From Phenylobacterium sp. (lineage in GTDB: Bacteria > Pseudomonadota > Alphaproteobacteria > Caulobacterales > Caulobacteraceae): a stretch of DNA of 64,000 nucleotides. The stretch covers positions 106,014 through 170,013 of the forward strand of contig NZ_JBBCIT010000003.1 of assembly GCF_037189685.1 (NCBI RefSeq), written 5' to 3'. Under the pieces are notes generated by a model. It made no database searches. It saw nothing but the letters and a program-made list of their open reading frames with translations, and had not been told where the DNA came from. This document shows, piece after piece, positions 8,226-62,535 of the stretch (the first letter of the stretch is position 1; every line of letters starts with the position of its first letter). Position numbers and translations under genes: made by a program.

Positions 8226-10384
8226 CACCGCGGATCGTATCCCCAGGTCCAGGGCCGCCGGCCCCGATACGCCTGCGCCCAGGCGGCGCGCCAGCCCTGG
8301 CCCGTCCGCCAGAGCTCCACCGAGCCGCCGGCCAGGAAGTCGCGCTCGGTCAGCACAAGGCGTGCGCCGCAGCTCTCGGGCCGGACGTCGTTGCGCAGGA
8401 CCACGAGATCGGCGCCCGCGCACAGCTCCTCCAGCCGCCCCGCCTTCAGCGGCCGGCGCAGGTTCCAGGCCGCCGCCACCCGGACCGGGGCGTCCGCGCC
8501 CGGCGCACAGCTCCACTGGTCGCAGGTGAATCGCGCGTCCCGTTCCGCGTCGCTGACCAGCGGGGTCAGGCCGCGACGCCGGGCCCAGAGTTCGGCGCCG
8601 AAGAGCTTCACGTCCGGCCGCATCAGCACCGCCTCGCGGCCATCGCGCACCGCCACCGCGGCGCCGTCGGCGGCCACCCAGACGTCGGGCGGCGACGGGC
8701 GCGGCGCCCAGAGGATGGCTGTCGCGGCCAGCAGGCCCGTCCACCGGAGCGGACCCGCCCACAGGCAGACGAACAGCAGCCCCAGGAAGCTCACGGGCAG
8801 CACCCAGCCTGGGGCGCTCGGGATCACCGCCTGCGCCAGCGGCGCCGAGGCGGCGATCTCGGCGACCCGGTTCATCAGCGCGATGGACCAGCCCGCGACC
8901 TCGAGCGGCGCCTGTCCGAGCCCGAAGGGCGTCAGCGTCGCCCCCAGCGCCAGGCCGGGCATCATCAGGAAGGACGAAATCGGCGCCACCGCCAGGTTGG
9001 CGAACAGCCCCCAGGTGGCCACCCGGTTGAAATGCTGGATCGCGAACGGCCCGGTCGCCAGGCCGGCCACGAAGCTCACCGCCAGGCTGGCCGCGGTCCA
9101 GGTCGCCGCGGTCTGCGTCCAGCGGATCGGCCAGGGCACGTCGATCTCGCGCACAGGCCGCGGCCAGATCTCGGCCAGGGCCACCAGGGCGGCGGTGGCC
9201 GCGAACGACATCTGGAAGCCCGGACCCGTTATGGCCTCGGGTTGCAGGAGCAGGACCGCCATCGCCGCCAGCGCGAGGGCGTGAAGGCTGATCGCCTGCC
9301 GGTCGGCCAAGACGGCGAGGAACGCGACCGCGGCCGTGATGGCGGCGCGCTCCGCAGGCGGCGGCGCGCCCGAAAGGACCAGATAGCCGCCCACGGCGGC
9401 CAGCCCGACACAGGCGGCCACCTTCTTGCCGGGCGCCCTCAGCGCCAGCCACGGCCACGCGGCGACCAGGAGCCGGACCGCGGCGAAGACGAAGCCGCCG
9501 ACGATGGCCATGTGCAACCCGCTGATCGAGACGATGTGGGCCAGGCCGGAATCGCGCAGGTTCTCGACCTGCTCGTGTGGGATGAAGGCTTCGTGCCCCG
9601 TCGTCATCGCCGCCGCCAGGCCGCCCGTCTCCGCTCCCAGGGCCGCGACGATCTTCTCGGTAAGACTCCAGCGGACCGCGTTGATCCGCATGGTGAGGCC
9701 CAGCCGCCAGGGCGCCGGCGCCTCGGCTTCGACGGCGACCGGCGGGCGCAGGGCCAACCCTACGGCGCCGACGCTCCTGAAGTAGGCGTCGCGCGCGAAG
9801 TCGTAGGCGCCCGGGCTCGCCGGCGGCGGTGGCGGGTTGAGGATCGCGAACAGGCGCACCGCCTCGCCCGGACGCGGCAGCGGGGTTCCCGGGCGCAGGG
9901 TCACCCGCATCCGGATGGGAGTCGTCCGCGCGGGCCAGTCGCCGATCCGGACCGGCGCCAGCAGCAGCCGCGGGCCGCCCTGCCCCGGCGAGGCGATGTC
10001 GACCACCCAGGCCTCGACCCACTGCGGTTGGCCGCCGGCCCGGGCCACCGGCGCCTTAACGGCCTCGGCCCGGAGCTTGGCTGTCGAGAAGCCGCCCACG
10101 AAACAGGCCCCCAGCACCAGGGCGATCGTGACCAGCCGCGCCGGGCTCCATCGGGTCGCCACGAGCAGTCCCAGGACGACCGGCAGCAGCGCCCACGCCA
10201 CCCAGGCCTGGGGCTCGCGCAGAAGGGTGAAGTAGAGCGCGCACCCTCCGCCGAACGCGACGGGCGTCCAGAGCGTCCAGCGGTCGGCCTGGGCCCAGGC
10301 CTGCGCCCCCAGCCAGGCGCGCGCCGACGCCAGGGCGGGTTCCCGCCCGGCGCTATCCGCCGCCGCCGTTCCAAGCGCGTCCAA
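8225..10384 (-). CDS. comEC: ComEC/Rec2 family DNA internalisation channel protein
   Basis: C-terminal about 720 codons of ORF 8225..11608. Polytopic core with SGLAHIVSISGLHMAIVGG. The part of the ORF above about 10560 is antisense to gltX. There is no in-frame ATG near the 5' end, so TTG 10384 is proposed and the start is uncertain. Confidence 0.8.
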   Translation of the reverse strand: MDALGTAAADSAGREPALASARAWLGAQAWAQADRWTLWTPVAFGGGCALYFTLLREPQAWVAWALLPVVLGLLVATRWSPARLVTIALVLGACFVGGFSTAKLRAEAVKAPVARAGGQPQWVEAWVVDIASPGQGGPRLLLAPVRIGDWPARTTPIRMRVTLRPGTPLPRPGEAVRLFAILNPPPPPASPGAYDFARDAYFRSVGAVGLALRPPVAVEAEAPAPWRLGLTMRINAVRWSLTEKIVAALGAETGGLAAAMTTGHEAFIPHEQVENLRDSGLAHIVSISGLHMAIVGGFVFAAVRLLVAAWPWLALRAPGKKVAACVGLAAVGGYLVLSGAPPPAERAAITAAVAFLAVLADRQAISLHALALAAMAVLLLQPEAITGPGFQMSFAATAALVALAEIWPRPVREIDVPWPIRWTQTAATWTAASLAVSFVAGLATGPFAIQHFNRVATWGLFANLAVAPISSFLMMPGLALGATLTPFGLGQAPLEVAGWSIALMNRVAEIAASAPLAQAVIPSAPGWVLPVSFLGLLFVCLWAGPLRWTGLLAATAILWAPRPSPPDVWVAADGAAVAVRDGREAVLMRPDVKLFGAELWARRRGLTPLVSDAERDARFTCDQWSCAPGADAPVRVAAAWNLRRPLKAGRLEELCAGADLVVLRNDVRPESCGARLVLTERDFLAGGSVELWRTGQGWRAAWAQAYRGRRPWTWGYDPR

Positions 10385-10561
10385 GAGGTCCCCCCCGAGC
10401 CCGGCCTCAACCTTGCCGCGAAGACCCCGCCGACGCCAAGCCCGACGCCGCAGAACGCAGTCTCCGCGTCGTCGGAGAATGCGGCGGCGGGCGCCCCGGC
10501 GTTTCCTTTTCGGGACGTCATGGTAAGAGGCCGGCCCGCCCGCGAAGACCAGACTTGAGCC

Positions 10562-11983
10562 ATGTCCGCCCCTCTTGCAGCCCGCCCCGTCCGCACCCGG
10601 ATCGCGCCCTCGCCCACCGGCATGATGCACATCGGCACCGCGCGCGTGGCCCTCTTCAACTGGCTCTATGCCCGCCACACCGGCGGCCAGTTCCTGTTGC
10701 GGATAGAAGACACCGACCGCGAGCGGTCCACCGACGCGGCCGTGCAGGTCATCTTCGACGGCTTGGCCTGGCTGGGCCTGGAGCCGGACGAGGCGCCCGT
10801 GTTCCAGTTCGCCCGCGCCGACCGCCACCGCGCCGTCGTGGACGAGATGCTGACCCGTGGCGCCGCCTACCGGGACTACATGACCCCGGACGAGCTGGAG
10901 GCCGAGCGCGAGGCCGCCCGGGCCGAGGGCCGCGTGATCCGCTCGCCCTGGCGCGACCTGTCGCCGAACGACGCGCCCGACCGGCCCTTCGTCGTGCGGC
11001 TGAAGGCGCCACAGGCGGGCGAGACCATCGTGCATGACCAGGTGAAGGGGCCGATCCGGTTCGAGAACCGGACGCTGGACGACCTGATCCTGCTGCGCAC
11101 GGATGGCACGCCGACCTACAACCTGGCCGTCGTGGTCGACGACCACGACATGGGGATCACCCACGTGATCCGCGGCGACGACCACCTCAACAACGCCGCG
11201 CGTCAGACCCTGATCTACCAGGGTCTGGGATGGGAGGTTCCCGCCTGGGCGCACCTGCCGATGATCAACGGCCCTGACGGCAAGAAGCTCTCGAAACGAC
11301 ACGGCTCCCAGGCCGTGAGCGAGTTCGACGACATGGGCTATCTGCCCGAAGCCATGCGGAACTACCTGGCCAAGCTGGGCTGGGGGCACGGCGACGACGA
11401 GATCTTCTCGGACGCGCAGGCCATCGAGTGGTTCGACATCAAGGACGTGGTCAGCGCCCCGGCCCGCCTCGACTGGGACAAACTGAACCATCTCAACAAC
11501 CACTACATCCGTCAGGCCGACCCGCTCCGCCTGGCCGGCCTGGTGGTCGCGATCCTCGAGAGCCGGGACGTCGCGCTTCGCCCGGGTGACGAGGCCCTGA
11601 TCGCGCATGTCGTCCCGTTCGTGCGTGACGGGGCCAGGACCACGCTGGAACTGGCGGATGCGGTCGTCTTCGCCCTCAGGCCCCGCCCGCTGGAGCTGCC
11701 GGAAAAGACCCGCACGCAGTTGGCCGATCCCGAACTGGCCAGACGCATGGCGCGCCTGCGCACCGCCCTGGCCGGCGTGGAGGACTGGTCGGTTCCCCCT
11801 CTGGAGGCCGCGCTGCGGGCCTTCGGCGAGTCCGAAGGGGTAGGACTGGGCAAGTTCGGCCCGCTACTGCGCGCCATGCTCTCGGGCGGCGCGCCCGCGC
11901 CCGACCTGGCCGGAGCCATGACGGCGCTGGGCCGCGAGGAGAGTCTGGGCCGGATCGACGACGCGCTTTCTCTCGCTGCGTAA
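10562..11983 (+). CDS. gltX: glutamate--tRNA ligase
   Basis: RIAPSPTGMMHIGTAR (HIGH-type) and KLSKRHG (KMSKS) motifs. Confidence 0.95.
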   Translation: MSAPLAARPVRTRIAPSPTGMMHIGTARVALFNWLYARHTGGQFLLRIEDTDRERSTDAAVQVIFDGLAWLGLEPDEAPVFQFARADRHRAVVDEMLTRGAAYRDYMTPDELEAEREAARAEGRVIRSPWRDLSPNDAPDRPFVVRLKAPQAGETIVHDQVKGPIRFENRTLDDLILLRTDGTPTYNLAVVVDDHDMGITHVIRGDDHLNNAARQTLIYQGLGWEVPAWAHLPMINGPDGKKLSKRHGSQAVSEFDDMGYLPEAMRNYLAKLGWGHGDDEIFSDAQAIEWFDIKDVVSAPARLDWDKLNHLNNHYIRQADPLRLAGLVVAILESRDVALRPGDEALIAHVVPFVRDGARTTLELADAVVFALRPRPLELPEKTRTQLADPELARRMARLRTALAGVEDWSVPPLEAALRAFGESEGVGLGKFGPLLRAMLSGGAPAPDLAGAMTALGREESLGRIDDALSLAA

Positions 11984-13426: not shown

Positions 13427-13428
13427 CT

Positions 13429-13586
13429 GTCATCCCGGTTTCGGCGAAGCCGAAGACCGGGACCCATCCCAGGGCCGTGCGTCGATGCCGCAGGATGCGC
13501 ATGACATCTGCGCCGCGCCCCTCCAGGGAGATCGACGCCTCGTTCGTTCGTGGGTCCCGGTCTTCGCTATGCGAAACCAGGATGAC
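13429..13586. repeat. MITE/REP-like inverted hairpin pair (element A), no coding capacity
   Basis: Left arm gtcat-cccggtttcggcgaagccgaagaccggg-accca (13429-13466). Right arm, inverted: tgggt-cccggtcttcgctatgcgaaaccagg-atgac (13551-13586). The 84-bp core has a nested inverted repeat gcgtcgat / atcgacgc (13479-13486 and 13531-13538). Confidence 0.8.
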
Positions 13587-14754
13587 ACCCTTTGCTTGTG
13601 ACGAGCTCCAGCACCGCGTCCGCCGCCGCCTCGCCCGGATCGGGCCCGCCGCGGCCCATCTTCAGCAACGCCGCCGACTGCCGTTCGACCTGACGGCGAC
13701 GCAGCTCGGCATCGTCCATCCTGAGGGTCGCCTCGCGCGCGAGCGCCGGGCCGTTGCAGTCGTCCTGGATCAGCTCCGGCGCGACGAAATCCTGGGCGGC
13801 GATGTTGAACAGCGTCACGTACTTCGTGCGGATGAGACGCTTCAGGATCGCGTGGGTCACGGGTCCCAGGCGATAGCCGACCACCACGGGGCAGCCGGCC
13901 AGCGCCAGTTCGGTGGTCACGGTGCCGGAACAGGCCAGGGCCACCGTCGCGGCCGTCATCGCGTCGCGCTTGGCGGCCTCGCCTTCCACCACATGGCATC
14001 CCTGCGGCCAGCCGGCCACCTGCGCCTTCACCGTTGCGGCGACCGTCGGCGCGGCCGGAACGACGACGTGCAGTCCGGGCCGCTCGGCCTTGAGGATGCG
14101 CACGGCGTCCTCGAAGGCCGGCAGCACGCGCTGGATTTCGGACGGGCGACTCCCCGGCGCCACGAGCAGGATCGGCTCATCAGGTCCCGCACCGACGCGT
14201 TCCCGCATCCGGGCCGGATCGGCGGCGCTGAAATCGAGGGCCAGAGTCGAATCGCCGACGAACACCGTCTCCAGGCCCTCGCGCTGGAAGGCCGGAGCGT
14301 CGAAGACGTGGATGGTGAGCAGAAGGTCGAAGGCCTCGGCGGTCGTCCTGGCCCGGCCAGGCCGCGAGGCCCAGACCTGCGGAGCCACATACTTCACCAG
14401 GGGCATGTCCGGCAGCCGTCGACGCAGCCGATGCGCCACGCGCAGGGTGAAGCCCCACGAGTCGATCAGGACGGCGATGTCGGGCCGCTCGCGCTCGGCC
14501 AGGGCCGCCGCCTCGTCGGCGCGCCGCACCACCCTGCGCCAGGCCATCAGGCCCTCCAGCAGGCCCAGGATCGACAGTTCGGAGATGTCGAAGGGACTCT
14601 CGACCCCCTCGGCCCGCATCCGCGCGCCGCCGACGCCGACCAGCCGCACGCCATCGCCCAGCCGCCCCTTCAGCGCCCGGGCCAGGTTCGCCCCGCGGTC
14701 GTCGCCCGAAGCCTCGGCGGCCACCAGCATGACCGTGAGCGGGCGGCCGCTCAT
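13567..14754 (-). CDS. lpxB: lipid-A-disaccharide synthase
   Basis: From ATG 14754 in ORF 13567..15441 (MSGRPLTVMLVAAEASGDDRGANL...). ATGA overlap with the lpxI stop. The last six codons and the stop lie inside element A. Confidence 0.92.
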   Translation of the reverse strand: MSGRPLTVMLVAAEASGDDRGANLARALKGRLGDGVRLVGVGGARMRAEGVESPFDISELSILGLLEGLMAWRRVVRRADEAAALAERERPDIAVLIDSWGFTLRVAHRLRRRLPDMPLVKYVAPQVWASRPGRARTTAEAFDLLLTIHVFDAPAFQREGLETVFVGDSTLALDFSAADPARMRERVGAGPDEPILLVAPGSRPSEIQRVLPAFEDAVRILKAERPGLHVVVPAAPTVAATVKAQVAGWPQGCHVVEGEAAKRDAMTAATVALACSGTVTTELALAGCPVVVGYRLGPVTHAILKRLIRTKYVTLFNIAAQDFVAPELIQDDCNGPALAREATLRMDDAELRRRQVERQSAALLKMGRGGPDPGEAAADAVLELVTSKGCHPGFA

Positions 14755-16880: not shown

Positions 16881-17893
16881 GCGTTCTGCCCCCCTCGGCG
16901 GTTCGCCATGCGGGCGAGCCACGCCGTCTCCTTCAACCAGTGCCGGATCGGCCGCGCCGGCATGCCGCCCCAGGTCTCGCCCGCCGGAATGTCCTTCATG
17001 ACGCCCGCGGCGGCCCCCACGCGGGCGCCCGCGCCGATGGTCACATGGTCGGCGACCCCGGCCCGCCCGCCGAACTGGGCCCCGTCTCCGATGGCGACGC
17101 TGCCGGAGATGCCCGTGTGCGCGGCCATGACGCAGTTCCGCCCGACGCGGACGTTGTGGGCGATCTGCACCAGGTTGTCGATCTTGGTGTTCTCGCCGAT
17201 CACGGTGTCGTCGTAGGCGCCCCGGTCCACCGTCGTATTGGCGCCGATCGACACCCCGTCCTGGATGATCACCCGGCCGAGCTGGGGGATGTCGATCAAT
17301 CCCTTCGGTCCGGCCGTCGCCCCGAATCCGGGCTCGCCGATGCGCGCGCCCGCGAGGATCCGCACCCGATCGCCCACCAGGGCGAAGCCGATGGTGGCGC
17401 CGGGGCCGATGTCGCAGTCGCGGCCGATGGCGACCCCCGGGCCGATCACCGCATTGGCGCCGATGCGGGTGTCGCGGCCGATCTGCGCCGCCGGCCCCAC
17501 GACCGCGCCGGGGCCCAGGACCACGCCGGCTTCGAGTCGGGCGTCGGCGGCGACGCGCTCCCCTCCGCCTTCGCGCGGACGGTGCAGCCGCTGGGCGGCC
17601 AGCGCATAGGCCGCGTGCGGGTTGGCGACCGACAGCACGACACAACCCTCGGGCGCCAGCGCCTCCGACCCTGTCGGCAGGAAGCAAGCGCCCGCCCCCG
17701 CACCGGCCAGGGCGGAGGCATATTTGCGATCGGCCAGGAAGGTGATGCTGTCGGAGCCGGCATGAGCCAGCACGGCGACACGGCTCACCCGTCGCCCCGC
17801 AGCCTCGGGGCCCAGCGGAGCGGCGCCGGTCAGCCCGGCCAGCTCGCCGAGCGTGACCGGGCCCAGGTCTTCGAAGAAGCGCGGATCGGGCAT
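16877..17893 (-). CDS. lpxD: UDP-3-O-acylglucosamine N-acyltransferase
   Basis: ORF 16877..17986, with start taken at ATG 17893 (MPDPRFFEDLGPVTLGELA). Long left-handed beta-helix hexapeptide repeats. Confidence 0.92.
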   Translation of the reverse strand: MPDPRFFEDLGPVTLGELAGLTGAAPLGPEAAGRRVSRVAVLAHAGSDSITFLADRKYASALAGAGAGACFLPTGSEALAPEGCVVLSVANPHAAYALAAQRLHRPREGGGERVAADARLEAGVVLGPGAVVGPAAQIGRDTRIGANAVIGPGVAIGRDCDIGPGATIGFALVGDRVRILAGARIGEPGFGATAGPKGLIDIPQLGRVIIQDGVSIGANTTVDRGAYDDTVIGENTKIDNLVQIAHNVRVGRNCVMAAHTGISGSVAIGDGAQFGGRAGVADHVTIGAGARVGAAAGVMKDIPAGETWGGMPARPIRHWLKETAWLARMANRRGGQNA

Positions 17894-28439: not shown

Positions 28440-28621
28440 CGTCTGTATCGTCTCTTTCTTCCGGTTGGACCGCCGCGGGCAAACCCTCCGAAGAGGACCG
28501 GAACGGACAGGACGGGATGTCTCCCCGCCCAAGACCGCACACCCGCGTGTGGATTGGAGCGGCGCATGTAGTGGGAAACAGGCCGGAAATCAAGACGAAG
28601 CGGCGACGCCCGTCGGTGCGG

Positions 28622-39523: not shown

Positions 39524-41860
39524 TCAGAACACCGCCCCCTGCGCCACCAGTTCGGCGATACGGTCGGCCGGCACGCCATACCCCCCCAGGATCTCCGCGG
39601 AATGCTCGCCCAGGTCCGGCGTGGGCCGCGAGAAGCCCGTCGGCGTCCGCGAGAAGGCCGAGAAGGCCCTGGTGCTGACCACCGGCCCGAGCCGGGGATG
39701 CGTCCAGGCCTCCACGAAGCCGTTCTGCGCCAGGAACGCGTCCTCGAGGGCCTCGGCGCCGCGGATCGCCGGCGCGGCGGCGACGCCCGCCGCCCGGAGC
39801 GCCGTCAGCGCCTCGCCCCGCGGGCGCGCCGCGAGGGCTGTGGCGATCCCGTCGGCCAGCGCGCCGTCGCGAGGCTCGGTCAGGGCCCCGTCGTCCAGGT
39901 CCAGCCCCACAACCTCGCCCAGCGCGCGGGCTTCGGCCCCGGTCTCGGCCACCAGGCCGATCCAGCCGTCGGCGCACGCATAGAAGCGGTGCAACGCCGA
40001 GACCCCGATACAGTCGACGTCGCCGTCCACGTTCGGCGGCCGGCCGTCGTAGGTGGTCACCTCGCCGCTCTGGAACAGCAGGCTCTGGGCCATCAGGCTC
40101 GTCAGCACCTCCTGGCCCTCGCCGGTTCGCTCGCGCGCGTTCAGGGCGGCGATCACGGCCCCTGCGACGGTGGCCGCCGTGGCGATGTCGTTGACGGCGA
40201 TCGTGTAGAGGACCGGGTCGCCCGCGCCCCCCTGTCCCGCCATCATCCCGCCCTCGGCCTGGAGCAGCGGGTCGAACCCCGGCAGCGCCGCCCGCGGCCC
40301 GCTCTCGCCATAGGCGTTGATCGAGCAGGAGATGATCCGGGGGTTGGCGGCCTTCAGCGCCGCGTAGTCGATGCCCAGGCGCCCCCGCACGCCCAGCCGG
40401 TAATTGTCGATCACGACGTCGGCCTGCCGGACCAGATCCAGGAACAGCGCCCGCGCCGAGGGTGTCTTGAGGTCCAGCCCCAACGCCCGGTTGCCGCGGT
40501 TGTAGGCCATGAACTGCGAGCCGTCCGACCGGAAGGGATCGCCCTCCCGCGGCTCGATCTTCGCCACGTCGGCGCCGAGCTGGGTCAGGATGGTGCCCGC
40601 ATAGGCGCCCGCGATCACCGTGCCCAGGTTCAGAACCTTCACGCCGGCCAGCGGCCCGCCGGAGTCCGGAGCGCCTGAGTCCGGAGCGCCTGAGTCCGGA
40701 GCGCCTGAGTCCGGAGCGCCTGGGTCCGGAGCGCCTGGGTCCGGAGCGCCTGGGTCCGGAGCGCCTGGGTCCGGAGCGCCGGACTCAGGCGCCGCCCGCG
40801 GGGACCAGGCTGGCGGTGCGGCGATGGATTTCGCCAGTCCGCGCACCGAGGCGGGGGTCGTCGCGAACTTCACCGAGGGCGCGGGCGTGGCCACCACGCC
40901 CAGCGTCGGATGCGCCAGTTCCAGCCTCAGGCCCGCGTCCCGGACCACCTCGCTGGCGAACCAGGCCTCGCGGCGGCCGATGGGTCCGCACGGCACGTCG
41001 TTGGCCCGCAGCGCCTCCAGCCACTCGTCCCGCGTCCGCGTCAGGAACATGCCTTCCAGGAGGTCGCGCGCCGCCAGCATGTCGGCCTCAAGCGCGTCGA
41101 AGGCGTCCTCCAGGCCCAGCACCTCGAAGGCCTTGCGATAGAAGTTGTTGAACAGCGTCCCGAGGAAGAACCATTCCCCGTCCGCGCATTGATACAGCCG
41201 GTAGCGCGGGTTGCCGCCCGGCGGCACGGGCCGGGGAAGCGGCGGCTCGACGAAGACCTTGGACGGCGGCGCCGCCTCGGCCGCGCCGTGCAGTCCGGTG
41301 ACCACCAGTCCCTGGCCCCGCCCGCTGCGGGTCCGCTCGAACAGCGCCGCCCCGATCGCGCCTGCGCCCAGCACGGCCTGCGCATACCAGGCGATCGGCA
41401 GCGTCAGATGCACGGGCTGGTCGCTCCACGCGCCCTGGCGGAACGCGACGCCCGTCAGGCCGGCCAGCAGCAGGTGGTGCGGCGCCAGGTCGCTCCACTC
41501 GCCCGTGGTCCCGTAGGGCGGCATCCAGGCGTGGACTAGTCCGGGATGGGCCGCCGTCAGCGTCTCGGCGTCCAGTCCCAGCGCCTCCAGGCGTCCCGGC
41601 GCGTGGTCGAACAGCGCGACGTCCGCTCCCGCGATCAGCGTCCGCGCGGCCGCCAGCCCCTGGCCGTCGCCGAGATCCAGGGTCAGAACCTGCTTGTTGC
41701 GGTTCCAGGTCTGATAGCCGGCCGTTCGCTGCGCCCGGTCGCCGCCCGGCGGCTCCACCTTGACGATCTCGGCCTCCAGGTCGCCCAGCAGCATGGCGGC
41801 CATCGGCCCGGCCACCCCTTGCGTGAAGTCGACGATCCGAACGCCCCTGTACGCGGACAT
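39524..41860 (-). CDS. tandem-fused family III (CaiB/BaiF) CoA-transferase, two complete domains
   Basis: 778 aa. The N-terminal domain starts VRIVDFTQGVAGPMAAMLLGDLEAEIVKVEPPGGD. The second domain starts VKVLNLGTVIAGAYAGTILTQLGADVAKIEPREGDP. They are joined by (GAPDP)4(GAPDS)4. Confidence 0.85.
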   Translation of the reverse strand: MSAYRGVRIVDFTQGVAGPMAAMLLGDLEAEIVKVEPPGGDRAQRTAGYQTWNRNKQVLTLDLGDGQGLAAARTLIAGADVALFDHAPGRLEALGLDAETLTAAHPGLVHAWMPPYGTTGEWSDLAPHHLLLAGLTGVAFRQGAWSDQPVHLTLPIAWYAQAVLGAGAIGAALFERTRSGRGQGLVVTGLHGAAEAAPPSKVFVEPPLPRPVPPGGNPRYRLYQCADGEWFFLGTLFNNFYRKAFEVLGLEDAFDALEADMLAARDLLEGMFLTRTRDEWLEALRANDVPCGPIGRREAWFASEVVRDAGLRLELAHPTLGVVATPAPSVKFATTPASVRGLAKSIAAPPAWSPRAAPESGAPDPGAPDPGAPDPGAPDPGAPDSGAPDSGAPDSGAPDSGGPLAGVKVLNLGTVIAGAYAGTILTQLGADVAKIEPREGDPFRSDGSQFMAYNRGNRALGLDLKTPSARALFLDLVRQADVVIDNYRLGVRGRLGIDYAALKAANPRIISCSINAYGESGPRAALPGFDPLLQAEGGMMAGQGGAGDPVLYTIAVNDIATAATVAGAVIAALNARERTGEGQEVLTSLMAQSLLFQSGEVTTYDGRPPNVDGDVDCIGVSALHRFYACADGWIGLVAETGAEARALGEVVGLDLDDGALTEPRDGALADGIATALAARPRGEALTALRAAGVAAAPAIRGAEALEDAFLAQNGFVEAWTHPRLGPVVSTRAFSAFSRTPTGFSRPTPDLGEHSAEILGGYGVPADRIAELVAQGAVF
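40661..40793. repeat. 15-bp in-frame minisatellite (7 full copies plus partial ends)
   Basis: ggagcgcctgagtcc x3 (40668-40712), then ggagcgcctgggtcc x4 (40713-40772). The array is capped by ggactcaggcgc, an inverted copy of the unit core. Confidence 0.9.
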
Positions 41861-42089
41861 GCGCAGCCGGCCTCCCCTGCCCTTACCCTATCGCGCGGCT
41901 GCCCGCGTCTCGCTAAGGCCATCAAACCCGCCCTTCGAACGCGCGGCAAGCGGCATGGGCGAGATTCGACGGGCTCGGGCTGGCGTCGGCGCGAACCGAA
42001 AACAACTCCGCTCATCCCGGCGAATGCCGGGACCCAGATCGTATGGCTCAGTTCGTCGGCAGTCACATCTCGACAAGTACGGCATCATG

Positions 42090-42104
42090 GAACATTGTAA
42101 GAAC
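42090..42104. promoter_or_regulatory. SOS-box consensus GAAC-N7-GAAC at the 5' end of the GIY-YIG gene
   Basis: gaac attgtaa gaac at 42090-42104. It runs into the 10-bp palindrome gaacatgttc (42101-42110), which is centred on ATG 42105. Confidence 0.45.
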
Positions 42105-42458
42105 ATGTTCCATGTCTACATCCTTGCGAGCCACCGCAATGGAACGACCTACGTCGGTCACACGAACGATCTGGCGCGGCGTATCTGGGAGCACCGCGAG
42201 GGAATCTACGGCGGCTTCACCATGAAGTATGGGGTCAAACGGCTCGTATGGTTCGAAGAGCATGGATCGCGCGAAGAGGCGTTCCGCCGAGAGCGGCGAA
42301 TCAAAGAGTGGCGCCGATCATGGAAGCTGCTGCTGATCGAAGAGCGAAACCCGACTTGGCGGGACCTGTTCGAGGAGGTCTGTGGGGCGGACGTGGATGT
42401 GGAAGCCTGGCTGGCCGAGTTGGATCGCAGAGACGCAGCGCCTATGGCGGGCGTCTGA
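42105..42458 (+). CDS. small GIY-YIG nuclease family protein (URI / UPF0213-type)
   Basis: MFHVYILASHRNGTTYVGHTNDLARRIWEHREG...RERRIKEW matches the GIY-YIG core (YIL..G..YVG, R..EH, E). The alternative ATG 42087 would add MEHCKN. Confidence 0.85.
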   Translation: MFHVYILASHRNGTTYVGHTNDLARRIWEHREGIYGGFTMKYGVKRLVWFEEHGSREEAFRRERRIKEWRRSWKLLLIEERNPTWRDLFEEVCGADVDVEAWLAELDRRDAAPMAGV

Positions 42459-42518
42459 TTTCGCCACGCCGAACCATATGATCTGGGTCCCGGCATTCGC
42501 CGGGATGAGCGGAAGGAT

Positions 42519-44198
42519 CTATATCCGCAGCACCGTCGTCTCCACCACGGGCCGCTTGCCCCAGATGCGCTGGCTGGCCTTCTTCACCGCCCGGGTGATC
42601 ATGGTCTCGATGGTGTCGTCGAGATCCCGGTCCTCGCCCTTCAGGCGCTTGAGCGCCTGCTCGGCCTCGTCGGCCAGTTCGTCGAGGATGTCGTCCAGCG
42701 CGCTCTCGCCGTCGGCGGGCAGCCCCAGGACGCGCACCTGCGGGCCGCTGACGATCCGGCTGCGGCCGTCCAGCGCCACCGAGACCGCGATCATCCCGTT
42801 GTAGGCGGCGTGGCGGCGCTCGCGCAGCGCATCGCCGTTCTCGGGCGTCAGCACGCCCGCGTCCACGAACAGGCGGCCGGCGGGCACCTCGTCGATCACC
42901 TCGGCGCGGCCGGGCGCCAGCCGCACGAGGTCGCCGTTGCGGGGCGTCACCTGCTGCGGCACCTGGAGGTCGCGGGCGAAGGCCGCGTGCTCCATCAGGT
43001 GGCGCCGCTCGCCGTGCGTCGGCACCGCCACCTGCGGCCGCGCCCAGCGGTACATCTCGGCCAGCTCGTCGCGGCACGGGTGGCCCGAGACGTGGATGCC
43101 CGGATGGTCGCGCTCGGTGTAGAGCCGCACGCCGCGCTCGGTCAGCTTGTTCTGCAGGTTGCGGATCGGGATCTCGTTGCCCGGGATCACCCGGCTGGAG
43201 AAGACCACGCTGTCGCCCGAGGCCAGCTTCACGTGCGGATGCGTGCCCTCGGCGATCCGGGCCAGCGCGGCCCGCGGCTCGCCCTGGCTGCCGGTGCAGA
43301 GATAGAGCACCGCGTTCTCCGGCAGGTGCTTGGCCTCGGTGTCGTCCAGGAAGGGCTGGATGTCCTGCATCAGGCCGACCGACTTCGCCGCCGCCGCCAT
43401 CCGGTGCATCGAGCGCCCGGCGAGGCAGACGCGGCGCCCCGCCGCCTCGGCCGCGCGGATCACGCTGTCCATCCGCGCCACGTTCGACGCGAAGCACGCC
43501 ACCGCCACCTTGCCCTTCAGGCCGCCGATCAGCGACGTCATGGCCTCGCGCACGTCGGCCTCGGACCCGGCGTGGCCGTCCACGAAGACGTTGGTGCTGT
43601 CGCACACCATCGCCAACACGCCCTCGTCGCCCAGCCGGCGGATCGCGGCGGCGTCGGTGACGTCCCCCAGCAGCGGGTCGGGGTCGATCTTCCAGTCGCC
43701 GGTGTGCAGGATCGTGCCCAGCGGCGTGCGGATCGCCAGGCCGTTCGGCTCGGGGATGGAGTGCGTCAGGGTGATGAGGTCCAGCGTGAACGGCCCCAGC
43801 TCGATCCGCCCGCCCAGCGGGACCTCGGTGATCTCCACCTCGTCCAGTAGGTCGGCCTCGCGCAGCTTCTCGCGCAGGATGAAGGCGGTGAACGGCGTCG
43901 CGTAGATCGGCGCCTGGAGCCGTGGCCACAGCCAGGCCACGGCGCCGATGTGATCCTCGTGCGCGTGCGTCAGCACGATGCCCAGGATGCGGTCGGCGTA
44001 CGCCTCGATGAACGTCGGGTCGGGCAGGATCACCTCGACGCCCGGCGTGGTCTGGTCGCCGAACGTCACGCCCAGGTCGACCACGATCCACTTGCGGTCG
44101 TGCGCCGGGCCGAAGCCGTACAGGTTGAAGTTCATCCCGATCTCGTTCGACCCGCCGAGCGGCAGGAAGACGAGTTCGTCGTCTCTGGATTTCGCCAT
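42519..44198 (-). CDS. rnj: ribonuclease J
   Basis: From ATG 44198 in ORF 42519..44909. Metallo-beta-lactamase HAHEDHIG, followed by beta-CASP and C-terminal domains. Confidence 0.9.
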   Translation of the reverse strand: MAKSRDDELVFLPLGGSNEIGMNFNLYGFGPAHDRKWIVVDLGVTFGDQTTPGVEVILPDPTFIEAYADRILGIVLTHAHEDHIGAVAWLWPRLQAPIYATPFTAFILREKLREADLLDEVEITEVPLGGRIELGPFTLDLITLTHSIPEPNGLAIRTPLGTILHTGDWKIDPDPLLGDVTDAAAIRRLGDEGVLAMVCDSTNVFVDGHAGSEADVREAMTSLIGGLKGKVAVACFASNVARMDSVIRAAEAAGRRVCLAGRSMHRMAAAAKSVGLMQDIQPFLDDTEAKHLPENAVLYLCTGSQGEPRAALARIAEGTHPHVKLASGDSVVFSSRVIPGNEIPIRNLQNKLTERGVRLYTERDHPGIHVSGHPCRDELAEMYRWARPQVAVPTHGERRHLMEHAAFARDLQVPQQVTPRNGDLVRLAPGRAEVIDEVPAGRLFVDAGVLTPENGDALRERRHAAYNGMIAVSVALDGRSRIVSGPQVRVLGLPADGESALDDILDELADEAEQALKRLKGEDRDLDDTIETMITRAVKKASQRIWGKRPVVETTVLRI

Positions 44199-51841: not shown

Positions 51842-51880
51842 TGGGCCTTCGTTCAACCCCTCAATCCATTTGCTCGGATC

Positions 51881-51965
51881 GTCATCCCCGGGCTTGTCCC
51901 GGGGACCCATGAACACCAGCCTCTCCAGGGTGTTCATAGGTGGCCGGGACAAGCCCGGCCATGAC
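51881..51965. repeat. inverted hairpin pair (element C) in the nuoI-nuoJ spacer
   Basis: gtcat-ccccgggcttgtcccgggg-acccatgaacac (51881-51916), a 13-nt spacer, then gtgttcataggt-ggccgggacaagcccggcc-atgac (51930-51965). Confidence 0.85.
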
Positions 51966-52000
51966 GTGCGTCGTGGCGGCGCGGAATCGCGCCGCACGTC

Positions 52001-61107: not shown

Positions 61108-62535
61108 TCAGAGGCGGCTGACCCTGAGCGGAATTCCGCCGTCGGCGCGCAGCGCGATGTCCGCGCGCGGCCAGGGTTCGGCGCCGCCCGCGGGCTCGAA
61201 GCGGAACGCCGTCAGCCACCGCGACAGCAGGATCAGCGCCTCGGTGTTGGCCAGTCCCATGCCGATGCAGATCCGCGGCCCCGCCCCGAACGGCAGGTAC
61301 TGGTAGCGATGGCGCCCGGCCCGCGCCTCGGGGTCGAAGTTCTCCGGGTTGAAGGCGTCCGGCTCGTCCCACAGCCGTCGGTGCCGGTGGAGCACCCAGG
61401 GCCAGATCGTCACCATGTCGCCGGCCTTCACCGGCTCGCCGCACAGTTCGTCGTCCTCGGTGGCCTGCCGGTCGATCCGCAGCACCGGCGGATAGAGCCT
61501 GAGCGTCTCGTCCCACACCATGCGCAGGTACATCAGGCGGTCTGCCACGGCGGCGGGATCGCCGCCGCGCCACGCCTCGACCGCCTCCTCCCGCGCCCAG
61601 GCCTGGGCCTGAGGGTCCCGGCTCAGGAGGTACAGCGCCCAGGCCAGGCCGTTCGCCGTGGTCTCGTGGCCGGCGACGAAGAACGTCATGGCGTTGTCCA
61701 GCGTCAGGCGCTCGGCCGCCTCGCGCGGATGTTCGGCCAGGAAGGCCCGCAGCATCCGGGTGACGAAGTCGTCGGGCGGATCGTCGGCCTCGGCCCGCGC
61801 CCGGATCATCGCGGCCATCCGCGATCTCAGCCGCGTCTGCGCGCGCCGGCCGCGCCGCTGGGCGACGCCCCAGTCCAGCGCCTGGAGGCCGAACACCTGC
61901 GACAGCCGCAGCTCGCCGCCGCCCGCCAGCAGGTCGCGCACGTCGCTGGCGGTGTCCTCGAACGGCATCCCGCTGGCGCCCGAGAACAGCGTGGCGTCGA
62001 TGATCTCCAAGGTCGCCCGCGTGGCCTCGACGGCCACGTCGACCGTCCCCCCGCCGTCCGCCATCCGGGCGCAGCTCCGGCCCGCCGCGGCGTCGATCTG
62101 CGGAGCCGCGCCGGCCACGGCCGGCGGCGCGAACGCCGGCGCCATCAGCCGGCGCTGGCGCCGCCAGTCCTCGCCGTTGGCGCTCAGCAGGCTGTCGCCC
62201 AGCAGGGGCCGCAGGATTCTCTGCACCAGCCCCGGCCTCACATAGGCGTCGGCCCGGTCCAGCAGGACCCGCTTGATCGCGTCGGGCTCGTAGACGCCGT
62301 GATAGGTCAGGTGGAGGAACCGCGCCTTGCGGTAAGGCCGCTCGAACGCCTCCCGGGGGATCGCCGTCAACGGATTGCGCGTCATGCGCGGGTTGAACAG
62401 CATCATCACGCCGGGATCGCGTTCGAGCGGCTCCGGCGCCGGGGGCCGGAATCGCGGGGTGGGGAGGGCGATTGCGGCGGCGGCGACGGCGTCGGGCATT
62501 GGTGGGGAGACCTCGCGTTCGACGTCCCGGACCAT
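61108..62535 (-). CDS. cytochrome P450
   Basis: Heme-ligand loop FGAGPRICIGMGLA, I-helix FFVAGHETTANG, and ETLRLYPP (ExxR). Confidence 0.9.
   Translation of the reverse strand: MVRDVEREVSPPMPDAVAAAAIALPTPRFRPPAPEPLERDPGVMMLFNPRMTRNPLTAIPREAFERPYRKARFLHLTYHGVYEPDAIKRVLLDRADAYVRPGLVQRILRPLLGDSLLSANGEDWRRQRRLMAPAFAPPAVAGAAPQIDAAAGRSCARMADGGGTVDVAVEATRATLEIIDATLFSGASGMPFEDTASDVRDLLAGGGELRLSQVFGLQALDWGVAQRRGRRAQTRLRSRMAAMIRARAEADDPPDDFVTRMLRAFLAEHPREAAERLTLDNAMTFFVAGHETTANGLAWALYLLSRDPQAQAWAREEAVEAWRGGDPAAVADRLMYLRMVWDETLRLYPPVLRIDRQATEDDELCGEPVKAGDMVTIWPWVLHRHRRLWDEPDAFNPENFDPEARAGRHRYQYLPFGAGPRICIGMGLANTEALILLSRWLTAFRFEPAGGAEPWPRADIALRADGGIPLRVSRL

Follow-up and report, generated by a model that had tools for sequence, protein, structure and literature searches.

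Results

The inverted repeat and the gene that it encloses

Does a small nuclease gene that lies between two inverted hairpin repeats on a contig of Phenylobacterium sp. belong to these repeats, and if so, which kind of system do they form together? The locus is part of a 64-kb stretch of contig NZ_JBBCIT010000003.1 (the window), and counts given at window level cover only this part of the genome. A first-pass annotation had proposed that the gene, which encodes a GIY-YIG nuclease, is linked to the hairpins in the manner of REP elements and their transposases, and had regarded this fold as not yet described with REP-like repeats. Based on the analysis reported here, the 507-bp unit is probably (at about 0.85) an ssn module, namely a gene of the Ssn family of GIY-YIG nucleases together with two inverted cognate copies of the repeat called SRM. 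The central idea was correct but already known, because the feature belongs to the published Ssn/SRM system: the Ssn family and its NTS/SRM repeats were described by Chenal et al. (2025, Nat Commun 16:2388, PMC11893778), and the claim of novelty was given up.

The unit is bordered by a family III CoA-transferase gene (39524-41860) and the RNase J gene rnj (42519-44198), both on the minus strand and both identified with Pfam. Its arms, at 42007-42049 (plus strand) and 42471-42513 (minus strand), form a 43-nt inverted repeat in which 41 of 43 positions match (95%), with 421 nt between them, and the first 34 nt were free of mismatches. The edge at the right arm is 5 bp from the stop codon of rnj, and about 146 bp of native leader are retained upstream of the CoA-transferase gene. 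With a scoring of +1/-2, the inverted-repeat score was 37, which was the best in the 658-bp intergenic span, whereas dinucleotide shuffling of this span, repeated 100 times, gave 9.0 +/- 1.2 and at most 15; the inverted repeat around the nuclease gene is far from chance. A hairpin-aware scan located TCAT-CCCGGC-GAAT-GCCGGG-ACCCA in both arms, and a 7-bp hairpin of -9.3 to -9.6 kcal/mol was predicted for the arm as single-stranded DNA (ssDNA). The location given by the first-pass annotation, its 39-bp inverted repeat at 42009-42512 and its hairpin CCCGGC-GAAT-GCCGGG in each end were therefore all recovered, the repeat in an extended form. The promoter scan of the locus returned no promoter-like site.

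The ssn gene (42105-42458, plus strand) encodes a protein of 117 aa from the ATG at 42105 or of 123 aa from an alternative ATG at 42087, the former being the start used by the homologues and by the database gene call. PF01541 was the sole Pfam domain (residues 8-80 of 123, E 4.9e-16), in agreement with the earlier statement that a GIY-YIG nuclease is the only gene inside the repeats. A single GIY-YIG domain in a protein below 150 aa is the size range of the Ssn family. The protein also carries a C-terminal tail of about 25 aa that was common to its closest relatives only. One ssn gene was present within the window; weak tblastn matches near 8500 and 53000 (E 0.2-0.7 over 11-26 residues) were discarded as noise.

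Relationship to the Ssn family and its repeats

Ssn proteins are single-domain GIY-YIG proteins of about 94 aa (CDD cd10448), which form a clade separate from UPF0213 (PMC11893778). The SsnA protein of N. meningitidis binds the hairpin repeat NTS (CGTCATTCCCGCGMAVGCGGGAATCYRG) only as ssDNA and cuts it a few bases upstream, while duplex DNA, RNA and the complementary strand are left uncut and the RNA form is also unbound; binding and cleavage were shown experimentally for four Ssn homologues (PMC11893778). In many phyla, ssn genes have inverted NTS-like repeats (SRM) on either side, and the NTS/SRM consensus reads CGTCAT-stem-loop-stem-CYRG (PMC11893778).

One membership criterion of that work is a BLASTP match to Neisseria SsnA that has E < 1e-10 and spans no less than 75% of its 94 aa. 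When compared with the N. gonorrhoeae SsnA orthologue, the window protein was identical at 48 of 90 positions (53%) in a gap-free alignment covering residues 5-94 of 94, with E 5e-36, which is within these limits. Y5, Y16 and E63 (117-aa numbering) aligned with the catalytic Y6, Y17 and E64 of SsnA, and in 22 homologues these three residues and further R, H and N positions were invariant. The gonococcal orthologue agrees with the SsnA of the paper in length (94 aa) and in the Y6, Y17, E64 numbering. It was taken from two 2.17-Mb N. gonorrhoeae chromosomes that are filed as plasmids in PLSDB; in the locus used (L169, NZ_CP119142.1:1880219-1883485), the gene at 1501-1773 has no in-frame ATG and a nearby ATG, at 1494, lies in another frame; it is possibly a frameshifted gene.

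For the repeats, the published strict SRM pattern is HGTCWYN(0-2)YYVSBRHN(0-5)WNVSBRGN(0-2)RNCYNB, sought in the 500 bp to either side of the gene. Since this pattern misses the arms, a covariance model (R1) was built from 65 hairpins flanking homologues in other genomes, with the window sequences excluded. The two best matches of R1 in the window were the left-arm SRM (42008-42036, plus strand; CCGCTCAT-CCCGGC-GAAT-GCCGGG-ACCCA) and the right-arm SRM of the same sequence (42484-42512, minus strand), each with 41.6 bits and E 2.7e-9. The 11 NTS copies in 3.3 kb around gonococcal ssnA received 33-47 bits, a range that includes the window arms. With this model, which takes account of sequence and structure, oriented and inverted NTS-like hairpins were thus detected to the left and right of the gene. 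Pair counts on alignment A2 are no independent evidence for the hairpin, because its sequences were selected for pairing. A further R1 match at 17788-17814 (plus strand; 18.1 bits, E 0.011) was attributed to chance because it is inside an lpxD-like coding sequence.

Association of the repeats with homologous genes

The homologue scan, with one genome per species, gave 80 loci (L001-L080) whose proteins were 48-68% identical to the window protein. These loci were distributed over Alpha-, Beta-, Gamma- and Deltaproteobacteria, Chloroflexota, Planctomycetota and candidate phyla, and homologues were also found on rhizobial and Azospirillum megaplasmids. The span of these phyla by homologues of such identity indicates a wide horizontal spread of Ssn. 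Among the hosts, a Prevotella bin and a bin of the candidate phylum Uhrbacteria were observed.

The strict SRM pattern occurred at 1.12 matches/kb within 500 bp of the gene vs 0.038/kb beyond, on both sides in 23 and on one side in 16 of the 80 loci. With a relaxed hairpin definition, 49 of 80 genes were boxed on both sides, 45 of them in the order plus upstream and minus downstream as in the window, and the enrichment was 15-fold. The first-pass annotation had asked whether every GIY-YIG paralogue, here and in related genomes, is flanked by inverted copies; over the 80 loci, the motif was enriched 15- to 29-fold next to the gene. When the best inverted repeat spanning each gene was sought without any pattern, NTS-like hairpins emerged as its arms in most of the 80 loci, and arms longer than the hairpin were seen elsewhere too (51-68 nt in L008 and L019). 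Recognisable flanking hairpins were not found at L004, L035, L055-L057 and L060. Some database gene calls read through into the hairpin, which results in tails such as HPGECRDPD and LGPGIRRDER. The window nuclease and the hairpin repeats are therefore truly linked, and their proximity is no coincidence.

The 5' flank of the repeat followed the protein tree. In a neighbour-joining tree, a GCTCAT flank was recorded at 18 of the 23 leaves of the protein clade that contains the window, vs 1 of 58 other leaves, which is most simply explained by a single clade-specific change of the repeat. In Neisseria, the bases immediately 5' of the palindrome matter for cleavage, and the position of the variant is the position with this effect (PMC11893778). 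The GCTCAT/CCGCTCAT flank may reflect a changed specificity of the nuclease. Because the published pattern misses the CCGCTCAT variant, the published association figures are probably an undercount.

Hairpin pairs without a gene

Two further inverted pairs without a gene inside, which the first-pass annotation had listed, exist as described, and both are intergenic. Pair 1 (hairpins at 13430-13466, plus strand, and 13553-13586, minus strand) follows the citrate synthase gene and lies between convergent genes, and pair 2 (51882-51909, plus strand, and 51937-51964, minus strand) is located in an operon-like gap between nuoI-like and nuoJ-like genes, named from end sequences only. Arm 1 of pair 1 (13427-13466, plus strand; R1 16.1 bits, E 0.04; -15.5 kcal/mol) consists of GTCAT, the two-part stem CCCGGT-TTCGGC-GAA-GCCGAA-G-ACCGGG and then ACCCA; arm 2 (13551-13589, minus strand; R1 13.2 bits, E 0.26) is of the same subtype with a shorter inner stem and an altered loop, TTCGC-ATA-GCGAA. 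Arm 1 of pair 2 (51878-51916, plus strand) reads CGTCAT-CCCCGGG-CTTGT-CCCGGGG-ACCCAT and is a strict SRM match, with R1 26.6 bits and E 4.6e-5 at 51878-51909. Arm 2 (51930-51968, minus strand) has a compensatory swap of the stem from CC..GG to GG..CC and ACCTA instead of ACCCA, and its R1 match at 51937-51968 was weak (7.8 bits). The arms of pair 2 were identical at 33 of 41 positions with the pairing of the stem maintained.

The three loci therefore carry three distinct subtypes of stem and loop, and the gene-less copies received lower R1 scores because their stems and loops differ. TCAT was present at the 5' flank of all six window copies. Of the flanks GTCAT and ACCCA, which had been described for the two gene-less loci, GTCAT was confirmed in all four copies there, and one arm reads ACCTA instead of ACCCA; the arms of the gene have GCTCAT in place of GTCAT. 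Earlier, these pairs had been regarded as decayed copies of the unit. They are instead other subtypes, which in other genomes flank other ssn homologues: the 51878 subtype (GTCAT, 7-bp stem, CTTGT loop) closely resembles the repeats in L024, L058, L066 and L080, and the 13427 subtype with its long stem resembles the arms in L050 and L071. The gene-less pairs could be associated with further ssn paralogues at other places in the genome, or with past residents. In Neisseria, an altered stem sequence with the pairing kept abolished activity (PMC11893778), so that the window nuclease may not act on the gene-less pairs.

Composition of the unit and the junction in relatives

The GC content of the unit was 59.8% vs 71-74% in its neighbours, and that at third codon positions (GC3) was 0.73 vs 0.91-0.98, which bears out the lower GC content noticed at first. 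A metagenome scan with the window RNase J yielded 80 loci, and ssn adjoined rnj in none of them (0/80). In the closest syntenic relatives (RNase J identity 79-83%, gene order birA-coaX-rnj-CoA-transferase), the junction between rnj and the CoA-transferase gene was a gap of about 100 bp in L083 (3722-3820) and of about 75 bp in L086 (2979-3052), both without a hairpin; an unrelated gene for a secreted-looking protein of 286 aa was found there in L082 (2590-3750), and 2.7 kb of other DNA and genes in L084 (5500-8263). The comparison of filled and empty sites suggested in the first-pass annotation was thus partly achieved: the junction is empty in L083 and L086, which are relatives at this distance only. 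Given the foreign composition and the absence at the same junction in the nearest relatives found, the ssn module in the window was probably acquired by insertion or horizontal transfer.

The neighbours of the module differed in most genomes. Flanking genes were shared only in L001/L005/L021 and L007/L035, with two weaker single-flank matches in addition, and the window flanks were shared with no clade member. Exact-sequence look-ups of the window Ssn and RNase J gave no match. Those of three homologues (P0018, P0028 and P0041) showed each in one fixed context over 11-24 contigs, and since the context was single for each, there was no sign of recent transposition. In one lineage, the P0018 homologue (L161:1640-2412, L162:80-852) adjoins uvrC and immediately follows an IS5-like transposase pair (DUF4096 + DDE_Tnp_1).

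Other features of the window

A ComEC/Rec2-like competence protein (PF03772, DUF4131) is encoded at 8228-11608 (minus strand), 30 kb from ssn, in a listed reading frame that is over-extended at its 5' end; it is possibly of interest here, since transforming ssDNA is a target of Neisseria SsnA. The CoA-transferase next to the unit consists of two fused family III domains with a proline-rich (GAPDP/GAPDS)n linker at about 40650-40790. Rfam matched an rpsB leader/sRNA at 28448-28551 (minus strand, 44 bits). A 92-nt tRNA-Ala(cgc) was called by ARAGORN at 62078-62169 (minus strand), which is doubtful because Rfam does not report a tRNA there at gathering score.

Discussion

The window module resembles the described Ssn systems in several respects. 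Its protein is a stand-alone GIY-YIG domain in the size class of about 95-120 aa with the Tyr/Tyr/Glu spacing of SsnA, and its gene is boxed by inverted, oriented repeats of the form TCAT-stem-4-nt loop-stem-(A/T)(C/T)CCAG, with related intergenic copies. It differs from them by its clade-specific 5' flank, CCGCTCAT and not CGTCAT, by the C-terminal tail, which is limited to its close relatives, and by the orientation of the nearest repeats, which is plus upstream and minus downstream in the window vs minus upstream and plus downstream at gonococcal ssnA. UPF0213/YhbQ-type proteins have the same fold, size and stand-alone domain, but the structures of this type in PDB (1ZG2 BH0048 and 1YWL EF2693) were only distant matches (E 7e-7 and 4e-3), compared with 53% identity to SsnA, and no others were matched in PDB. 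Homing endonucleases of the I-TevI type share the GIY-YIG catalytic domain and a patchy distribution like that of selfish elements; unlike the window protein, they bind DNA through a separate domain, and they cleave both strands of duplex target genes. Pfam detected no second domain in the window protein, and the group I intron endonuclease model TIGR01453 gave 17.6 bits against a cut-off of 56.05.

Some points weigh against an ssn module with cognate repeats. The strict SRM pattern, applied to the whole window, matched neither arm, and its sole match was at 51880-51910; the miss arises because the 5' end of both arms reads G-C-TCAT (CCG-C-TCAT) and not H-G-TCAT (CGTCAT), and by reading of the sequence the remainder of the pattern fits both. 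The comparator for membership was the N. gonorrhoeae orthologue (NZ_CP119142.1), whose record is without an in-frame ATG, in place of N. meningitidis CAX49033.1. In Neisseria, the upstream bases affect cleavage, so that the specificity of the nuclease for CCGCTCAT-type arms is putative. As to acquisition, the relatives with empty sites are at 79-83% RNase J identity, a distance at which insertion and loss are indistinguishable at base resolution.

The comparison with REP elements and RAYT transposases (REPtrons and REPINs), from which the analysis started, is apt as an analogy, and the same one was drawn by the authors of the Ssn study, who likened NTS-ssnA-NTS to an insertion sequence (IS), to IS200/IS605 and to REP-associated transposases (PMC11893778). 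In both cases a small nuclease gene stands amid inverted hairpin repeats, and gene-less inverted doublets are dispersed in intergenic DNA, which is a functional resemblance and not membership; Ssn enzymes likewise recognise an ssDNA hairpin with specificity from its unpaired flanks. The enzymes are different, a hydrolytic GIY-YIG nuclease here and a covalent HUH tyrosine enzyme of the Y1 type there, and no Y1 HUH transposase (RAYT) gene was present between the arms, where GIY-YIG was the only gene. REP elements carry a conserved 5' tetranucleotide of the GTAG type beside the stem. All six window copies have TCAT at this position.

Whether the module moves by itself is a separate matter. SRM-ssn-SRM might be a present or recent autonomous element, which Ssn excises and re-inserts as a nickase with the help of host repair or replication, the gene-less pairs being its non-autonomous, REPIN-like derivatives and the CCGCTCAT clade a co-evolved switch of specificity; the mobility hypothesis was raised for NTS-ssnA-NTS in the Ssn study itself (PMC11893778). 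Terminal repeats that exceed the hairpin (43 nt here, and also in L008 and L019), the dip in GC and GC3, the absence of the unit at the L083 and L086 junctions with a variable junction in L082 and L084, neighbourhoods that vary among clade members, homologues of 50-68% identity in several phyla and on megaplasmids, and gene-less inverted pairs in intergenic DNA are all consistent with it. GIY-YIG enzymes hydrolyse DNA without a covalent intermediate. For this reason the chemistry cannot itself rejoin strands, and we know of no strand-transfer activity of Ssn-type GIY-YIG enzymes. Moreover, the complement of the motif is uncut (PMC11893778), and because the inverted arms put the recognised strand on opposite strands, the cuts differ from those of IS200/IS605 and peel-and-paste of that type does not follow directly. 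No target-site duplication was found at the unit edges, the window holds a single ssn gene, the gene-less pairs are of other subtypes, and three homologues each keep one fixed context over 11-24 contigs. A self-mobilising element is therefore an unlikely reading of the locus, and the earlier view of the nuclease as the mobiliser of the repeats was left unsupported, given a nickase that cuts one strand, inverted arms and the fixed contexts of three homologues.

Two simpler accounts fared worse. If the hairpins worked at the RNA level, ending transcription or stabilising mRNA as has been suggested for classical REPs, with no functional tie to the nuclease, then the position of the right arm 5 bp past the rnj stop, of the pair at 51878-51968 in the operon-like nuoI/nuoJ gap and of the pair at 13427-13589 between convergent genes would be understandable, as would a weak, terminator-like minus-strand match that coincides in part with the left arm. 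There is, however, no T-run after the hairpins, the Rfam scan of the locus matched no family, the RNA form is neither bound nor cleaved by Neisseria SsnA (PMC11893778), and the conserved asymmetric flanks and the gene association would be left unexplained; a side effect of the hairpins on RNA is possible and would not be the primary explanation, which makes this account quite improbable. A chance meeting, in which GC-rich hairpins pile up in intergenic gaps and a common small GIY-YIG gene happens to stand between two of them, had been named as the alternative from the beginning. Such hairpins do occur away from nuclease genes in the window, and small GIY-YIG genes are abundant (672 matches in the homologue search). 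The motif is enriched 15- to 29-fold beside homologues in 80 genomes, position and orientation of the copies are conserved, the flank variant follows the protein clade, and binding and cleavage were established by experiment in four homologues (PMC11893778), all of which contradict coincidence and reduce it to the least credible of the readings.

As a member of the Ssn family, the window enzyme would be expected to act like the characterised Neisseria and Wolbachia enzymes. When the repeat becomes single-stranded, it would fold into the 7-bp GC hairpin, and the Ssn protein would bind this hairpin and read the unpaired bases next to it, namely 5' TCAT and 3' C. The protein would then cut the strand that carries the motif, a few bases upstream of the motif, and leave duplex DNA, RNA and the complementary strand uncut. 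The two nicks predicted in the window would lie on different strands, one at either outer boundary of the unit. The most likely role, by analogy with Neisseria, would be the trimming of motif-bearing ssDNA, incoming or replicating, and with it the modulation of recombination.

If the unit did mobilise itself, it would be a mechanistically new type of element, and the insertion in the window, 5 bp beyond rnj, would be a fresh one. With its low GC content, empty orthologous sites and near-identical arms, the locus is a test case for the mobility of Ssn modules. The CCGCTCAT clade, in place of CGTCAT, is an addition to the published system and may provide a new cleavage specificity for ssDNA tools.

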